Assembly: GCA_966211685.1 (NCBI GenBank)
Contig: CBIHOX010000011.1
Location: forward strand, 7,649-71,648
DNA length: 64,000 nt
Direction: 5' to 3'
Source of the DNA: an uncultured Pseudoduganella sp.
Lineage (GTDB): Bacteria; Pseudomonadota; Gammaproteobacteria; Burkholderiales; Burkholderiaceae_D
Shown: in pieces, positions 29,030 through 35,485 of the stretch
Layout: the number at the start of each line of letters is the position of its first letter
Numbering within the stretch: the stretch's first letter is position 1
The notes under the pieces: generated by a model
Database searches by the model: none
Told to the model about the DNA's origin: nothing
Seen by the model: the letters and a program-made list of their open reading frames with translations, nothing else
Translations under genes and position numbers: made by a program

Positions 29030-29045
29030 TGTGACGGTCATCACA
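29030..29045. promoter_or_regulatory. Perfect CRP-type box TGTGA-CGGTCA-TCACA upstream of the S-layer gene
   Basis: taaTGTGAcggtcaTCACAaaa. With the centre set at -41.5, the minus strand gives an extended -10 TG-C-GAGTAT at 29011-29003. Confidence 0.85.
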
Positions 29046-29369: not shown

Positions 29370-30782
29370 TCACTTGGGCTTGGTCCAATACGTGGCGCCT
29401 TCCGTGGTGCGGGCCGCATCGAGACGCCCCTGGAACAGGTAGGCCGCAGTGCCCCCATTCTCCGAACTCAACACCCCTGTCACATTGACATTGCTGTTGT
29501 TGTTGTAACGTGGCGACTCTCCATAGAAGCGGCCATCGCTCCCCACCGTGCCGCTGGAACGCATGTTGAAACGCTCGGCCTGCGCCACCAGGTCAAAACT
29601 GGTGGTGTACGTTTTTTGGTCAAAATTGAAATTCAATACACCGTTTTCCACTTTGGCCACTTCCGCCGGCGTGAAACTGTCGCGCAAAATATACGCTTCA
29701 CTGTCTTTCAAGGTGAAACCAGCTGAACTGCGTTCCGGTATTTGATAATCGGCGCCCGGCGTGCGGAACAAGGCAAAGTTGCCTTTCATGTCCACCAGCT
29801 CCGCACCGCTCTTCAGCATGGCGACCAGGTCCACCTTGGCGGTTTTATCGAGCAACGGTTGCCAGCGTCCCCAGACGATCTTCCGCTCAGGCTGCGGCGG
29901 TTCAGGCGGCGTCACCACGGGCGGGTCCACCACCGGCGGCGTCACCACCGGCGGGACCACCACCACCCCGCCGCCCGTGTCGGGTTTTTCCAGCACTGGC
30001 GGCACGGTAACGATCGGGTCCGGAGTCGTCGTTGGCGGCTGCTGCACCACTTGCGCCACGCGCTGCTTCAACTCCTGGTCTTTTTTTGCTTCCAGGCTGG
30101 GTTCCGGCGGCCCGCCCGCCATGCCGCCTTTAGGTTCATCCGTGCGTGGCGGCGCCACCACATCCGGCGCCAAAGTGCCAGACGGCAACAATTGTGGCGC
30201 CGCCTGGCCGCGGCGCACCTGCAACAGCAGGCCGCGCTGCGCGGCGGACAATTCACGGCTGGCCTTGCCTTCGCATGGGCCGGTACCGTCCGGGCTGCAC
30301 GCGCCGGCAAATCCACTAATAGTAATACCGCCAGACAGCACGGTGACCCGGGTTACTTCCTGGTCGGCCGACACGGCGAAATCCGTCCCACGCACCCCAA
30401 TGGCCGCCACCGGCGTATTGAAACGGAAATTCTGGCGCGCCTGCTTGACGGCTTCGCCGGACTGGCTGCGCGCCACCCCTTCCAGCAATTCCAGCTTGAT
30501 GCGGGTATTGGCCGGGTTGGCGGCGTCGATGTGGTAATTGACGATGCGGGCCTTGCTCGACGGCCGGACAATGAACAGGCCGTTGTCGATGGTTTTCACA
30601 TACACATAGCCATCGCCTCCGGTGACCAGCATATCCCCTTCCCGCACCACGCCGTTCAATTCGGCGGCGCGGTCGGCGACCTTGACCTGGCCTGCGACAA
30701 AAATGATTTTCCCGGCATCGGCCGCGAAGGCTGTTGCGCCCCACAAGCCGAGCCCGACGATAGCTAATAGATTACGCAACAT
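29370..30782 (-). CDS. Exported FecR-domain protein with Pro-rich linker and C-terminal beta-rich domain
   Basis: Signal peptide MLRNLLAIVGLGLWGATAFA, FecR-type ...FRFNTPVAAIGVRGTDFAV...VTVLSGGI, linker PVVTPPVVDPPVVTPPEPPQPE, alternating aromatic/polar strands at the C-terminus. Confidence 0.85.
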   Translation of the reverse strand: MLRNLLAIVGLGLWGATAFAADAGKIIFVAGQVKVADRAAELNGVVREGDMLVTGGDGYVYVKTIDNGLFIVRPSSKARIVNYHIDAANPANTRIKLELLEGVARSQSGEAVKQARQNFRFNTPVAAIGVRGTDFAVSADQEVTRVTVLSGGITISGFAGACSPDGTGPCEGKASRELSAAQRGLLLQVRRGQAAPQLLPSGTLAPDVVAPPRTDEPKGGMAGGPPEPSLEAKKDQELKQRVAQVVQQPPTTTPDPIVTVPPVLEKPDTGGGVVVVPPVVTPPVVDPPVVTPPEPPQPERKIVWGRWQPLLDKTAKVDLVAMLKSGAELVDMKGNFALFRTPGADYQIPERSSAGFTLKDSEAYILRDSFTPAEVAKVENGVLNFNFDQKTYTTSFDLVAQAERFNMRSSGTVGSDGRFYGESPRYNNNSNVNVTGVLSSENGGTAAYLFQGRLDAARTTEGATYWTKPK

Positions 30783-30837
30783 ATGATTCCTTTTCCTTCT
30801 GGCGCCCGGATATGGTGATGGGCGATGGCGCGGATGT

Positions 30838-30867
30838 GCCGGATTACGCTGCGCTAATCCGGCCTAC
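30838..30867. repeat. GTAG REP
   Basis: gccggattacgctgcgctaatccggcctac, identical to 9865-9894. Confidence 0.85.
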
Positions 30868-30967
30868 ATCACAAGCTGCAGGGGCGGATCGCGGTCCGCC
30901 GTTGCTTGAGGGTCTGCAGGCGGCCTTCCCCTGTTACCGTAATTATCCCTGTGGATACACAAGTTAC

Positions 30968-30983
30968 AGTGACGACCATCACA
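30968..30983. promoter_or_regulatory. Near-perfect CRP-type box AGTGA-CGACCA-TCACA in the fecR/cyclase divergent region
   Basis: 9/10 consensus match. GATAAT on the minus strand (30947-30942) lies at class II distance, facing the FecR-domain gene. Confidence 0.7.
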
Positions 30984-31128
30984 TTGTACCGAACTTGCCT
31001 GCCTCGGCCGCCAAGGTTACACATTGTTGCAAAGCAGGGTCTCCATATATATAGAGGGTAGGAAGGCTGACGTATAATAAAAGCTCAGTCTCCCCATCTT
31101 CCAGCGCAGCACTTTCAGGCGATCCCCT

Positions 31129-33066
31129 TTGTTGAGTTTTACGGCATTGTCCACGTGGCGTTCCTTTTTCCGTATACCGGCCATCCCGGCGCATGCGGTG
31201 CTGGCCGCGATCGGGCTGGCTGCCGTGCTGTTGACCGCGGCCGCCCAGTGGGGCATGCCGGCCGGCGCCACCTTCCCCGCCGATGAATGGCTGCGCGACC
31301 GCATCCTGCGCCTGCGCAGCGCGCCCACGCCGGAGCCGCGCATCCTGGTGGTCGATATCGATGAAGCCAGCCTGGCAGAAGTAGGCGCCTGGCCGTGGCC
31401 GCGCGAGCGGCTGGCCACTTTGGCGGAAATCCTGCTGACCCATTACGAAGCACGCGGCGTGGCCTTCGATATCCTGCTGCCCACGGCCGGCGATCCGCAG
31501 GGCGACCAGCGCCTGATGATGCTGGCGGCGCATGGGCCGCTGGTGCTGGCGCAGGCATTCGATTATCCGGAAGCCCAGCGCCAGCCGCTGCGCGCCGGAC
31601 AGCTCGGCGGCGCCCGCCCCGGCCGCGGCACGGCCCAGCTGGAAGCTTCCGGCTACATCGCCAACCACCCGCAATTCGCTAATGCGCGCAATATCGGCAA
31701 CATCGGCTTCCTGCCCGATGCCGATGGCGCGCTGCGCCGCGTGCCGCTGCTCACCAGTTTCAATGGCGCGCTGTATCCTTCGCTGTCGCTGGCGCTGCTC
31801 GATTGCTGCAGCGGCGGCCCCAAACTCGTGGTGACGGACCCGGCGCCGTTGCGGGTGGATTTCCAGCGCGACTGGAATGCCTATACCGTGGTCAGCGCCG
31901 CCGACATCCTCGACGAACGCATTGCCCCCGAGAGCGCTTCCGGCCGCCTGGTGCTGGTCGGCTCCTCGTCGATGGGCACCGGCGACCGCGTGACCACACC
32001 ATTGGCGCGCAACCGCCCCGGCCTCGGCGTGCAGGCCGCCGTGCTGTCGACCATCCTGGACCGCCAGCAAGGACTGGCGCCCCGCCCCTGGCCGGGCCGC
32101 CTGATCGCCTGCGTGTTTACCGCCATCGTGGCGCTGGTGAGCGTGTGGAGTTTCCCGCGCCTGTCCGCCATGGCCAGCGTCAGCCTGCTCGGCGCCGGCA
32201 TGGCGGCGTGGCTGGGCGTGGCGTGGGTGGTGTTGCCGCACGACGACGCCATGGTCAGCAGCGCCCCGCTGGCCAGTTGCCTGTTCTTGCTGGCGTTTGC
32301 CATTCCTTACCAGTGGCACGTCAGCCAGCGCCGTTCGCGCCGCCTGCTCGATACCCTGCGCCAATATGTGGCGCCCGCCGTCGTGACGGAACTGTTGCGC
32401 AGCGACATGGCCGATCCCTTGCAGCCGCGCCTGCTCGACGTCACCACCCTGATTGCCGACCTGCAGGGTTACACGTCGCACGTGGAAGCGCTGCCGCTCG
32501 ATGAAGCCGCGGAATTGACCAGCAGTTTCCTCGATTGCCTCACCGCCCCCGTGATTGAACAGCAGGGCACCTTGGATAAATATACCGGCGACGGCTTGGT
32601 GGCATTCTGGGGTGCGCCGTTGCCCAATGATAACCATGCTGATTTGGCATTGGACGCGGCACGTGATATTGTAGCCAGAGTGCAACAATTGAGCGCCCAG
32701 CGCCGTGCCGCCGGCTTCCCGCCGCTGCGGGTGCGGATCGGCATTGAAAGCGGCCCCGCCATGGCGGGCGATTTCGGCAGCGTGTTCCGCAGCGTGTATA
32801 CCGCGGTCGGCGACAGTGTGAACACGGCGGCGCGCCTGGAGCAGGCCGCCAGGGATTTCCCGCACGACGTCATCATTGGCGCCGGTACAGCACAACGCAC
32901 GCGCCGCCACCGGCTCATGTTGCTGGGCGAACGGCAATTACGCGGCAAAGATAAACCAACCATTCTTTATACGTTTGACAGCAGCATGGATGTCTCCCTC
33001 ACCAACGGCCTCACTGGCGCCAGCCAGGCTGCCGCCACGCCGGCAAAGGCAGCGTTTACTGCATGA
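31129..33066 (+). CDS. CHASE2-domain class III adenylate cyclase (start codon uncertain)
   Basis: N-terminal TM, CHASE2 motifs ILVVDIDEASL...GAWPWPRERLA...FDILLP...D.DGALRR, three TMs, cyclase motifs LIADLQGYT, DKYTGDGLVAFWG and YTAVGDSVNTAARLE. Both Asp residues, the ATP-specifying Lys/Thr and the Asn/Arg are present. Confidence 0.92.
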   Translation: MLSFTALSTWRSFFRIPAIPAHAVLAAIGLAAVLLTAAAQWGMPAGATFPADEWLRDRILRLRSAPTPEPRILVVDIDEASLAEVGAWPWPRERLATLAEILLTHYEARGVAFDILLPTAGDPQGDQRLMMLAAHGPLVLAQAFDYPEAQRQPLRAGQLGGARPGRGTAQLEASGYIANHPQFANARNIGNIGFLPDADGALRRVPLLTSFNGALYPSLSLALLDCCSGGPKLVVTDPAPLRVDFQRDWNAYTVVSAADILDERIAPESASGRLVLVGSSSMGTGDRVTTPLARNRPGLGVQAAVLSTILDRQQGLAPRPWPGRLIACVFTAIVALVSVWSFPRLSAMASVSLLGAGMAAWLGVAWVVLPHDDAMVSSAPLASCLFLLAFAIPYQWHVSQRRSRRLLDTLRQYVAPAVVTELLRSDMADPLQPRLLDVTTLIADLQGYTSHVEALPLDEAAELTSSFLDCLTAPVIEQQGTLDKYTGDGLVAFWGAPLPNDNHADLALDAARDIVARVQQLSAQRRAAGFPPLRVRIGIESGPAMAGDFGSVFRSVYTAVGDSVNTAARLEQAARDFPHDVIIGAGTAQRTRRHRLMLLGERQLRGKDKPTILYTFDSSMDVSLTNGLTGASQAAATPAKAAFTA

Positions 33067-34325
33067 CGCATCGCCTTGCCCTGACAGCCTGGCTGCTGGC
33101 CATGGCCGCGCTGCCGGCCGCGGCGCAGGACGCCCCCCGGGAGCCCGCGCCGCCGCTGCCCGTGGTGGAAATACCCGGTCCGCACCAGCAGGATTGGTAC
33201 CAGGCCGCGCTGCAGTCGATTGCCGAGGGCCGCAAGCATGACGCCAGCGCGGAACTGGAGCGTGTCATCCGCAATGAACCGCTGCACGCCGGCGCCTGGC
33301 TGGACCTGGCGCTGATCCAGTGCAGCCTGGGCCACGCCGAGGAAGCCTTCCGCCTGTTCGGTATCATCGAGGAGCGCTTCAAGCCGCCGCCGGCATTCCT
33401 GGAATTGATCGCCAGTTACCGCCAGCAGGGATGCGACCGGTGGGAAGTGCAAAGCCAGGCCAGCCTCACGCTGGCGCGCGGCATCGACCAGAACGTCAAC
33501 CAGGGCCCGAGCGCCAGCAGTTACTCGGTCGGCACCGCCGCGCTCAGCGTGGAATATCCGGTGTCGCCGGAATTCAGGCCGAAACACGACCAGTATACGT
33601 CGCTGTCCGGCGATTATCTGCGCGACCTTACCAGCAATGGCACGGTCGGCATCGTGCAATTCCAGTTCCGGCGCAATGATGAATTGAAACAATATGACAA
33701 TGCATCGCTGTTCGGCAGCGTCGAGTCGCCGTGGCGCCTGGGCAACTTCAGCGGCCGCCATGTCGGCACGGCCGGCCTGCTGACACTGGGCGGCCACCTG
33801 TACCAGCGCCAGGCCCAGTTGCAGGAGCGCGTCACGGTACCCCTGCCCGGCAAGGTGCAATTGACGATGATGACCAGCATGACGCGCCTGAATTACGTCA
33901 CGTTGAACAATTTCGATTCCAGCACGGCGGAACTGCGCGGCGTGCTCAGTTACAGTGCCGGCGCCGGCAGCGTGCGCGCCGCCATCAGCCTGCTCAATGA
34001 CCATGCGATGGCCGACCGCCCCGGCGGCAACCGCCATGGCCAGGTGCGCTCGGTGTTGTTCCGCCAGAACCTGGGCATGCGCATCACGGGCGAACTCGGC
34101 TACACCGACCAAACCTGGCAAAGCGCCACCGCATATGCGCCGGGCGCACTGGACATCATCCGGCAGCAGCGCACGCAATCGCTGACGGCCAGCCTGTTTT
34201 ACCCGATCGGCAAGAACCAGATGGTGCAGCTGGAAGCGCGGAAAGTACGAAATCAGGAAAACATTCCGATCTTTCAGTACAATAATCGGCAGTTACAGCT
34301 AAGTTGGCAGTGGCAGGGTTTGTGA
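33063..34325 (+). CDS. Exported TPR plus outer-membrane beta-barrel protein (Slam/NsrA-like architecture)
   Basis: Signal peptide, TPR-like helices (EPLHAGAWLDLALIQCSLGHAEEA), amphipathic beta strands ending QLQLSWQWQGL. ATGA overlap with the cyclase stop. Confidence 0.75.
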   Translation: MTHRLALTAWLLAMAALPAAAQDAPREPAPPLPVVEIPGPHQQDWYQAALQSIAEGRKHDASAELERVIRNEPLHAGAWLDLALIQCSLGHAEEAFRLFGIIEERFKPPPAFLELIASYRQQGCDRWEVQSQASLTLARGIDQNVNQGPSASSYSVGTAALSVEYPVSPEFRPKHDQYTSLSGDYLRDLTSNGTVGIVQFQFRRNDELKQYDNASLFGSVESPWRLGNFSGRHVGTAGLLTLGGHLYQRQAQLQERVTVPLPGKVQLTMMTSMTRLNYVTLNNFDSSTAELRGVLSYSAGAGSVRAAISLLNDHAMADRPGGNRHGQVRSVLFRQNLGMRITGELGYTDQTWQSATAYAPGALDIIRQQRTQSLTASLFYPIGKNQMVQLEARKVRNQENIPIFQYNNRQLQLSWQWQGL

Positions 34326-34334
34326 GTGTAAAGA

Positions 34335-34679
34335 ATGGCAAATGAAATTTGGGGTATCGCTTTACTGGTTGGTATCCTGGGCCTGTCGGCCGGTTGCCTG
34401 GTCCCCAACCGGTGGTTGCCTGCCCGCATGCCCAACGATAAGTTGATGCATTTCGTCGCGTTTGCCGTCCTGGCCGGAGTGGCCATGCAAATCGCACAAA
34501 CCCGTATCGAAGCGGCCTGGTGGATGCTGGGCTTGCTGGTGGCGGGTTGGATAATTGAATGTCTGCAACAATTGCTGCCGGACCGCGGCTTCAGCTGGCG
34601 CGACATTGCCGCCAACGCGGCCGGCATCGTATTTGCCGCCGGCTGTACCCTGGCCTACCAAAGCCTGCCGATTTCGTGA
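34335..34679 (+). CDS. VanZ-like small membrane protein
   Basis: NDKLMHFVAFAVLA...IECLQQLLPDRGFSWRDIAANAAGI, a VanZ-like pattern. Confidence 0.8.
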   Translation: MANEIWGIALLVGILGLSAGCLVPNRWLPARMPNDKLMHFVAFAVLAGVAMQIAQTRIEAAWWMLGLLVAGWIIECLQQLLPDRGFSWRDIAANAAGIVFAAGCTLAYQSLPIS

Positions 34680-34732
34680 CGCAGATCACACGATACTGCT
34701 CGACTGACGCCGCTCCATGAGATAATCACTGC

Positions 34733-35485
34733 ATGAGTTCGACGCCCCTGCCTGCCAACGCGCCTGCGCAAACCGCCACTGCCGCGCCTTCCGCCGCTCC
34801 CGCCAGCGAAGAGCGCAATGTCCAGGTGCACCTGCGCAAAATCCCGCTGCTGGCGAATTTGAACGATGAGGAAATTGCCCGCGTGAAGGCGGACATCCGC
34901 ATCCGCCAATACGCCAAGCGTGAAGTCGTGCTGCACAAGGGCGGCAGCGGCGACGGCTTGCTGTTCCTGCTGGCGGGCCAGTTGCAAGTCATCGACGTGA
35001 CCGAGGATGGCCGCGCGATCGGCTTGCGCATGCTGGTGCCGGGCGACTTTTTCGGCGAAATCGCGCTGATCAACAATACCACCCGCTCCGCTTCCGTGGT
35101 GGCCACCACCGACGTGCTGGTGGCGTTCCTGCCGGCGCCGACCGCGATGCACCTGTTTTCCCATTCGCCGTCGGTGGCGCGCCAGATGCTGCAACACCTG
35201 GCGCAAAAGATCCAGCGCGACTCGGAATTCCGCGCGCTGCTCAGCATCAACAACACGGCCAAGCGCATTTACACCTACCTGGTGCTGATGCAAAAGAAAA
35301 ACCCGGACGGCACCGTGGTGGAAAACCTGCCGACTCACCAAGACATTGCCAACATGATCAACACCAGCCGCGAAACCGTGACGCGCGCGCTGTTGACCTT
35401 GGTGCAACAGGGTATCGTGCAAAAAGAACCGAATCGCCTGGTCATCAAGGATCCGGAAGCGCTGCAAAAGCTGGTGCAGGGCTGA
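34733..35485 (+). CDS. Crp/Fnr family cNMP-binding transcriptional regulator
   Basis: cNMP pocket GDFFGEIAL...RSASV; HTH THQDIANMINTSRETVTRAL; no FNR-type Cys cluster. Confidence 0.93.
   Translation: MSSTPLPANAPAQTATAAPSAAPASEERNVQVHLRKIPLLANLNDEEIARVKADIRIRQYAKREVVLHKGGSGDGLLFLLAGQLQVIDVTEDGRAIGLRMLVPGDFFGEIALINNTTRSASVVATTDVLVAFLPAPTAMHLFSHSPSVARQMLQHLAQKIQRDSEFRALLSINNTAKRIYTYLVLMQKKNPDGTVVENLPTHQDIANMINTSRETVTRALLTLVQQGIVQKEPNRLVIKDPEALQKLVQG

Follow-up and report, generated by a model that had tools for sequence, protein, structure and literature searches.

A predicted type 11 secretion pair with a FecR-headed cargo, encoded around a CHASE2 cyclase in an uncultured Pseudoduganella sp.

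The FecR, CHASE2 and Slam-like genes of the window

The window analysed here is a stretch of 64,000 nucleotides from an uncultured Pseudoduganella sp. (assembly GCA_966211685.1, contig CBIHOX010000011.1, positions 7,649 to 71,648 of the forward strand), a free-living soil bacterium of the Massilia/Duganella group. Three of its genes are considered together. They encode a secreted protein with a FecR domain (P0001), an inner-membrane CHASE2 sensor fused to a cyclase (P0003) and a protein composed of tetratricopeptide repeats (TPR) and an outer-membrane barrel (P0002), which by profile comparison is a divergent homologue of the Slam (DUF560) translocons of type 11 secretion. A sequence-only reading of positions 29370 to 34325 had paired the FecR protein with the barrel protein as a possible surface antenna, and had suggested hidden Markov model (HMM) searches and structure prediction as checks. 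Both open reading frames (ORFs) exist as given in that reading. The features of the three genes are listed below, with lengths in amino acids (aa) and the evidence in brackets; AF2 stands for AlphaFold2 and pLDDT for the predicted local distance difference test.

29370..30782, minus strand: P0001, secreted FecR-domain protein with predicted type 11 cargo architecture, 470 aa (ORF, Pfam, AF2, Foldseek)
30183..30719, minus strand: FecR-type beta-sandwich head of P0001, residues 22-200 (Pfam PF04773, Foldseek)
29892..30182, minus strand: disordered Pro/Val/Thr-rich linker of P0001, residues 201-297 (AF2 pLDDT <50 over residues 204-272, composition)
29373..29891, minus strand: C-terminal handle and 8-stranded soluble beta-barrel of P0001, residues 298-470, putative type 11 targeting domain (AF2, Foldseek, hhalign)
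30783..31128, no strand: divergent promoter region shared by the FecR-cargo gene and the cyclase operon (Crp-type box inside)
31129..33066, plus strand: P0003, inner-membrane CHASE2 sensor fused to a class III adenylate/guanylate cyclase, 645 aa (Pfam)
33063..34325, plus strand: P0002, divergent Slam/DUF560-family (type 11 secretion) outer-membrane protein, 420 aa (AF2, Foldseek, hhalign, HMM)
33183..33428, plus strand: periplasmic TPR domain of P0002, residues 41-122 (Pfam TPR_16/17/14/19)
33453..34316, plus strand: outer-membrane beta-barrel of P0002, residues 131-418 (AF2, hhalign)

The genes of P0001 and P0002 are divergent and lie 2.3 kb apart, with the cyclase gene between them, and this layout is kept in relatives. 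The stop codon of P0003 and the start codon of P0002 overlap in the sequence ATGA, so that P0002 is translationally coupled to the cyclase gene. P0003 displays the Pfam domains CHASE2 (E 1.6e-44) and Guanylate_cyc (E 6e-8), and inspection of the sequence places hydrophobic segments on both sides of the CHASE2 domain.

Architecture of P0001 and P0002

P0001 starts with a hydrophobic, cleavable-looking signal sequence that ends in AFA followed by AD; no lipobox cysteine was seen on inspection of the sequence. The FecR fold begins at about residue 22, leaving no room before it for a cytoplasmic anti-sigma domain or a transmembrane segment. The Pfam family FecR (PF04773) is matched at residues 52-153 (E 1.9e-9, 38.3 bits for a cut-off of 24). 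In the AF2 model, built from an alignment of 40 sequences, a confident beta-sandwich at residues 22-200 is followed by a disordered region at residues 204-295 (pLDDT <50) and by a C-terminal beta domain at residues 300-470 (pLDDT >90). The signal peptide, the FecR domain, the long linker, the C-terminal beta-strand domain and the lack of an anti-sigma transmembrane segment, all proposed by eye in the sequence-only reading, were therefore recovered by sequence, Pfam and AF2. The same reading had noted neither an extracytoplasmic function (ECF) sigma factor nor a TonB receptor nearby, and this holds for the whole 72-kb contig: no match to Sigma70_r2 or to the TonB-receptor Plug domain was obtained on it, for 17 and 55 matches, respectively, elsewhere in the genome. 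A FecIR-type anti-sigma system, which was considered as a candidate, was rejected, P0001 having no transmembrane or anti-sigma domain and the contig no sigma factor or transducer.

The residues Cys162 and Cys170 of the FecR head are invariant in the family alignment. In a Foldseek comparison with the PDB, the head matched anti-sigma factors in their periplasmic domains, namely BDI_1681 (E 1.1e-5) and PupR (E 1e-4). The FecR region also resembles the Leptospira proteins Lsa33 and LipL45, annotated as surface adhesin and lipoprotein. The linker comprises 97 aa, of which 25% are Pro, 19% Val and 9% Thr; across the P0001 family (1871 homologues matched) its length is comprised between 60 and 162 aa with a median of 92, and no member has a linker shorter than 60 aa.

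Concerning the C-terminal domain, the AF2 model contains three short strands, which constitute the handle, and then eight long strands at residues 353-467. Its best Foldseek matches in the PDB are TbpB (3ve1, E 5.8e-4), the C-lobe of TbpB (5kkx), the N-lobe of LbpB (4u9c), the C-domain of NHBA (6cuj, TM-score 0.60) and fHbp (7nru); lipocalins rank next. Experiments have verified TbpB, LbpB and fHbp, among others, as type 11 cargoes, and such a cargo is defined as an effector at the N-terminus, followed by a beta pedestal and an 8-stranded barrel at the C-terminus (PMC12282271). By sequence, AF2 and Foldseek, P0001 presents this arrangement, with a Sec signal peptide, an N-terminal head, a beta pedestal and an 8-stranded barrel. 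An hhalign comparison of the C-domain with the C-termini of FecR proteins encoded beside canonical Slam genes gave 94% (P 1.3e-7), for 0.25 with the reversed control. Two of these FecR proteins score 24.9 and 17.6 bits with the Pfam model TbpB_B_D, the cut-off of which is 26. As modelled, P0001 is thus built like a type 11 cargo, headed by a FecR signalling domain.

The AF2 model of P0002 (mean pLDDT 89) comprises a signal peptide, five helices at residues 41-122 (about 2.5 TPRs), 14 long strands and one short hairpin; strand counts were read from the secondary-structure strings of the AF2 models. The Pfam TPR matches are weak and localized at residues 45-105. The short hairpin is found at residues 153-166 of the barrel, and a conserved motif D-x-N-V-N-Q-G follows strand 1. 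In the P0002 family, for which 612 homologues were matched, the residues Cys87 and Cys124 are invariant. Foldseek retrieved on one hand, with the highest TM-scores, the 14-stranded barrels OmpG (TM-score 0.71) and CymA, and on the other hand the TPR-barrel exporters BcsC and PelBC; no Slam protein was present among the top 50 matches. The NCBIfam scan of P0002 gave no match for SlipAM/DUF560, and sequence-profile searches of the PDB with the family alignments returned only designed TPRs and irrelevant matches.

The relationship with Slam proteins was detected with profiles. A set of 13 proteins passing the Pfam model SlipAM was collected from other Burkholderiales genomes and compared by hhalign with a profile of 60 diverse P0002 homologues. 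The alignment extends over 369 columns with 99.9% (E 4.7e-35), the reversed-template control giving P 0.005, and it shows that the motif D-S-N-V-N after the first strand is common to the P0002 family and the DUF560 proteins. The barrel alone aligns to the Slam set with 99.6% (P 4.4e-24; reversed control 0.0066) and the TPR region alone with 97.4% (P 1e-11); for the full and partial alignments to this set, the reversed controls range from 0.005 to 0.11. Restricting the comparison to the four highest-scoring canonical Slams still gave 98.6% (P 9e-16; reversed 0.39). An HMM built from the 13 DUF560 proteins scores P0002 at 57 bits. Among the 60 homologues, 16 match TPR_Slam (PF24575) and three match SlipAM weakly (E 2e-3). 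Because the profile-profile homology is found over the full length, with the barrel alone and with the TPR alone, P0002 can be placed by sequence in the Slam/DUF560 superfamily, as a divergent member that the curated Pfam model misses. The Slam-like TPR/barrel that the sequence-only reading had seen at 33063-34325 is consequently supported by both the modelled architecture and the homology, and structure prediction of the two single proteins gave the expected folds, a barrel for the C-domain of P0001 and a TPR domain with a 14-stranded barrel for P0002.

Linkage of the genes in other genomes and neighbourhood of the locus

Contigs of Massilia, Duganella, Pseudoduganella and Herminiimonas carry members of the P0001 and P0002 families together. 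The close relatives keep together the genes of the FecR cargo, the CHASE2 cyclase, the Slam-like protein, the VanZ-like protein and the Crp-like regulator, and in Massilia sp. 9I the upstream gene of the surface protein is retained as well. In Herminiimonas (L037:2074-4665), several genes of toxin-antitoxin type (TacA/acetyltransferase, RelB/YafQ-ParE and FitA-like) separate the FecR-cargo gene from the cyclase operon, an indication that the module can be interrupted.

A class-wide search was done with the profile of 60 P0002 homologues against 400 genomes, of which 79 matched, and the 20 best loci were taken. The FecR gene is directly beside the Slam-family gene in 17 of these 20 loci, and a CHASE2 cyclase is found within 9 kb in eight of them, with different orders and orientations. 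An unbiased sample was then composed of 40 loci picked by Pfam SlipAM alone from 201 Burkholderiales genomes. A gene with a FecR domain directly adjoins the Slam gene in 26 of the 40 loci. Of 28 neighbouring ORFs submitted to Pfam, 27 showed the FecR domain; the exception has its FecR part on a separate adjacent ORF. The four top Slams, which are Neisseria-like, have no FecR neighbour, and in other lineages the FecR gene is directly 3' of the Slam gene. Many of the FecR neighbours carry one to four C-terminal barrel modules. At the level of genomes, CHASE2 genes are present in 26/26 genomes with a FecR-adjacent Slam gene versus 143/201 overall (related genomes not being independent), and most of the Slam genomes without a FecR neighbour lack CHASE2. 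The linkage of FecR, Slam and CHASE2 genes, in any gene order, is conserved well beyond the source genome.

Several variants of this organization were observed. FecR-headed proteins of 1300-1600 aa with four tandem TbpB-like barrels are encoded beside canonical Slams at loci L070:1779-7011, L078:8030-11953 and L080:7801-12336. At L070, the FecR part is on a separate ORF of 164 aa, which could result from a frameshift or a split gene. At another locus (L021:4948-8583), a protein of 1212 aa has two FecR domains and a C-terminal OmpA-like 8-stranded transmembrane barrel; its gene is just upstream of a Slam-family gene, itself followed by the genes of two more FecR proteins. Tandem pairs of CHASE2 genes about 4 kb apart are frequent (L064, L066, G076:C50, G146:C18, G014:C29), sometimes beside a Slam-FecR pair. 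The members of such pairs are a cyclase of about 750 aa and a protein of about 860 aa, the latter giving no cyclase-domain match in L064 and L066.

FecR and CHASE2 genes are also associated outside the Slam loci. The source genome contains three CHASE2 genes and four FecR genes. One CHASE2 domain is fused to a SpoIIE/PP2C phosphatase (contig C183:1-9000), and its gene is convergent with the gene of a 160-aa FecR protein with a signal peptide, which overlaps the gene of an OmpA-family peptidoglycan-binding protein. The other CHASE2 cyclase (contig C27:25000-44500) heads a cluster encoding a ShlB-like protein, a TPS/YDG exoprotein of 3262 aa, a FecR protein of 253 aa with a signal peptide and a POTRA_2/ShlB transporter. 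With its two TpsB-type transporters, this cluster joins CHASE2 and FecR with two-partner secretion and not with type 11. Operons encoding a LysM-FecR protein and a CHASE2 kinase have been described in Burkholderia (PMC5192318), and in Sinorhizobium meliloti the FecR gene smc02177, located beside cyaD1, is among the predicted Clr/cAMP targets (PMC5498481).

In S. meliloti, signalling to the CHASE2 cyclases CyaK and CyaD1/D2 depends on the outer-membrane protein NsrA (PMC7529298, PMC13001267). The nsrA gene overlaps cyaK. With Pfam, NsrA (pSymB, L081:3240-6839) displays a FecR domain at residues 66-160 (E 2.3e-15) and TPRs at residues 378-587, followed by a barrel that extends to residue 1200. 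The NsrA literature searched, from which the original description (PMC5952392) was absent, does not mention this FecR domain. As the FecR, TPR and barrel parts succeed each other in this order in one chain, the FecR part of NsrA must be periplasmic. The single NsrA sequence aligns to the Slam and P0002-family profiles in the TPR region only (79.8% and 22.9%, respectively). The common denominator of these systems is a periplasmic FecR head that is tied to an outer layer of the envelope and encoded with a CHASE2 sensor.

The other features in the neighbourhood of the trio are the following.

34335..34679, plus strand: VanZ-like small membrane protein, 114 aa (Pfam VanZ, E 1.1e-7)
34733..35485, plus strand: Crp-like cyclic-nucleotide-binding transcription factor (Pfam cNMP_binding, E 5.2e-20; HTH_Crp_2, E 8.6e-17)
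29030-29045: Crp-type box before the S-layer gene, perfect
30968-30983: Crp-type box in the divergent region between the FecR-cargo gene and the cyclase, one mismatch
34675-34690: Crp-type box before the crp-like gene
1394-1409: Crp-type box

Downstream of P0002, the genes of the VanZ-like protein and the Crp-like regulator are followed by genes of an O-antigen-type ABC export system (Wzm/Wzt), of FkbM and of a GT4 glycosyltransferase. The VanZ-like gene has the same position, between the Slam-like and the crp-like genes, in Massilia sp. 9I and in Herminiimonas. Upstream of the P0001 gene, a giant S-layer gene encodes an RTX/DUF4214 surface protein of 2440 aa. The four Crp-type boxes (TGTGA-N6-TCACA) of the window, two of which are perfect and two of which have one mismatch, compare with 1.24 expected by shuffling, and four boxes were reached in 4 of 100 shuffles. 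The Crp-like factor, encoded two genes downstream, is probably the reader of the cyclase output. The locus is an unusually divergent and rearranged version of the Slam/FecR/CHASE2 trio, within an S-layer/O-antigen locus and with its own Crp regulator and Crp-type boxes.

A possible relay across the envelope and its alternatives

We propose, with moderate confidence and by analogy, that the trio relays a signal from the outer envelope to the Crp-type regulator, the barrel of P0001 being outside or docked, the linker passing through the pore and the periplasmic FecR head modulating the CHASE2 cyclase. The Slam-like P0002 would recognize the handle and the 8-stranded barrel of its cognate cargo P0001, and would either put this barrel on the cell surface or keep it docked there. 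The proline-rich linker (60-160 residues) would run back through the pore and across the periplasm. The FecR head would thereby stay in the periplasm and touch the CHASE2 domain of the co-translated cyclase, perhaps together with the TPR domain of P0002. Binding of a ligand to the surface barrel, or its pulling, loss or proteolysis, would alter the activity of the cyclase. The cAMP or cGMP produced would be read by the Crp-like regulator, the candidate boxes of which are located before the S-layer gene, the FecR-cargo gene and its own gene. In this proposal, the domain identities, the Slam-type homology, the cargo-type fold and the gene linkage, which holds in any order, are shown, and the topology, the contact between FecR and CHASE2, the signal and the regulon are predicted.

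A number of observations weigh against this relay. The HMM searches suggested with the sequence-only reading failed for both proteins: at E values up to 10, P0002 is not matched by Pfam SlipAM (PF04575, DUF560) and P0001 is not matched by Pfam TbpB_B_D (PF01298). A six-frame search of the whole genome with SlipAM gave a best match of E 0.76, which is not at P0002, and TbpB_B_D, searched at E up to 1, matched nothing in it. The same Pfam model also left ten FecR-barrel proteins of other genomes unmatched, and the cargo domain can therefore not be filed under that Pfam family. The barrel of NsrA, compared with profiles as a single sequence, is not detectably DUF560. CHASE2 is present within 7 kb in only 4 of the 40 Slam loci picked by SlipAM, and the genome-level association between Slam-FecR pairs and CHASE2 is weak, since CHASE2 occurs in 71% of the genomes and related genomes are not independent. 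The FecR-barrel proteins are highly variable in their spacers and in their number of modules, from 346 to >2000 aa, which would suit an ordinary surface protein. Finally, the type 11 cargoes studied experimentally all move wholly to the surface or to the medium (PMC8406197, PMC12282271), and none is known to stay threaded in a pore.

This last point leads to the alternative that survives best, an ordinary type 11 pair in which P0002 would export the whole of P0001. The FecR head would then be a surface-exposed or released effector (an adhesin or a binder) carried on a proline-rich stalk, and the cyclase and the Crp-like regulator would merely control the surface protein and the S-layer, or be co-regulated with them. 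We consider this explanation possible without judging it likely. Proline/threonine stalks and multiple TbpB-like barrels do occur in predicted surface proteins (PMC12282271), and the one to four barrels of many FecR cargoes, as well as the resemblance of the FecR region of P0001 to Lsa33 and LipL45, are in line with a surface location; a Crp-type box faces the P0001 gene, and the rest of the locus is devoted to surface structures. However, whole export does not explain why the three genes are found together in every order and orientation, nor why the Slam-like gene is coupled translationally to the cyclase and not to its cargo. It also leaves unexplained that FecR proteins without an export domain accompany other CHASE2 genes, and that in NsrA the FecR domain is joined to a barrel on its periplasmic side.

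In a second alternative, which we hold to be unlikely, P0001 would be wholly periplasmic, its C-terminal barrel being a lipocalin-like domain for ligand binding or docking and P0002 a channel or a scaffold instead of a translocon. In its favour, lipocalins come next among the fold matches of the C-domain, TbpB_B_D gives no match, and the P0001 and P0002 genes are neither adjacent nor co-oriented here. Against it, the best fold matches of the C-domain are specifically Slam cargoes, this domain is homologous to the C-termini of FecR proteins whose genes immediately follow canonical Slams, two of which come near the TbpB_B_D threshold, and the homology of P0002 to translocons spans the whole protein. 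As for a polysaccharide-export porin of the BcsC/PgaA/PelB kind, unrelated to P0001 and serving the neighbouring O-antigen/S-layer glycan genes, this role of P0002 is suggested by BcsC and PelBC among its top Foldseek matches and by the Wzm/Wzt, FkbM and GT4 genes downstream, but it was rejected as highly improbable on strand number (14 and not 16-18), TPR length (only about 2.5 TPRs) and profile homology (to DUF560), and in Herminiimonas the Slam-like gene travels with the cyclase and FecR genes on a contig of 10.7 kb that has no glycan genes beside them.

The relay to the cyclase is favoured because NsrA combines FecR, TPR and barrel in one chain, because the protein of locus L021 joins two FecR domains to an OmpA-like barrel, and because small periplasmic FecR paralogues are encoded next to the other two CHASE2 genes of the source genome. 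Known members of type 11 secretion include Slam1 and Slam2 of Neisseria, NilB and HrpB of Xenorhabdus and TepS, with the cargoes TbpB, LbpB, fHbp, the hemophilins and Pls. P0002 resembles the translocons by its signal peptide, short periplasmic TPR domain, 14-stranded barrel and full-length profile homology, and P0001 resembles the cargoes by Sec export, an N-terminal head of variable type, a disordered spacer and a modelled handle and 8-stranded barrel close to those of TbpB, LbpB, fHbp and NHBA. The pair differs from this system in that Pfam SlipAM and TbpB_B_D detect neither protein, and in that P0001 carries a FecR signalling domain as its head, instead of a nutrient binder or a described type of adhesin. 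Moreover, P0001 is not a lipoprotein, the P0002 gene is coupled to a CHASE2 cyclase with the cargo gene divergent, the host is free-living and export is here predicted. In the FecA-FecR-FecI paradigm, FecR couples an outer-membrane barrel to a signalling step at the inner membrane. P0001 shares with this paradigm, and with PupR, a FecR-type periplasmic domain that matches PupR and BDI_1681 in fold. Unlike FecR of that system, P0001 has no anti-sigma domain or transmembrane segment, the contig has no ECF sigma factor or TonB-dependent transducer, and the output is a nucleotide cyclase.

The closest relay to have been studied experimentally is NsrA-CyaK of S. meliloti. There, a CHASE2 class III cyclase receives its signal only if an outer-membrane barrel component is present, and a regulator of the Crp family reads the cAMP (PMC7529298, PMC13001267). 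The window holds the parts of NsrA (FecR, TPR and barrel) together with a CHASE2 cyclase and a Crp-family reader. NsrA is a single chain of 1200 aa with a much larger barrel, whereas these parts are here split into a Slam-type barrel and a separate FecR protein with a type 11 cargo domain. In the Burkholderia operons of LysM-FecR proteins and CHASE2 histidine kinases (BiofilmReg; COG4254 with COG4252), a secreted FecR protein with a second domain tying it to the envelope is also encoded with a CHASE2 sensor (PMC5192318). There, the tether is LysM on peptidoglycan and the output is a kinase, whereas the locus described here has a putative type 11 cargo barrel, a Slam-type partner and a cyclase output.

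A link of type 11 secretion with FecR cargoes and CHASE2 is not described in the literature searched, where no paper joins DUF560 with FecR and none joins CHASE2 with type 11/Slam terms. In the two survey papers on type 11 secretion, FecR, CHASE2 and cyclase are absent from the main text, FecR being listed solely in a supplementary co-occurrence table (201 versus 48 in the control). FecR-headed proteins are the majority neighbour of Slam genes in the order-wide sample of 40 loci, and on the translocon side as well as on the cargo side entire branches escape the present Pfam models. What has been characterized of type 11 secretion concerns only host-associated bacteria, with cargoes that bind nutrients or act as adhesins. 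CHASE2 is among the commonest extracytoplasmic sensor domains, being present in 143 of the 201 Burkholderiales genomes sampled; the literature describes its inputs as unknown, with one genetic lead, the requirement for outer-membrane NsrA in S. meliloti. The locus joins these two fields. It is conceivable, although we advance it only tentatively, that the commonest partner of type 11 secretion in free-living proteobacteria is a FecR-headed protein threaded through the Slam pore, which would act as a trans-envelope tether and as a direct input to CHASE2 cyclases, kinases and phosphatases. NsrA would then be the fused version, and the trio described here would report the state of the S-layer and O-antigen to a dedicated Crp regulator. 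The locus offers a concrete partner, the FecR head, and a concrete route, made of a Slam-type pore and a cargo barrel, through which the level of cAMP or cGMP could be set from the cell surface.

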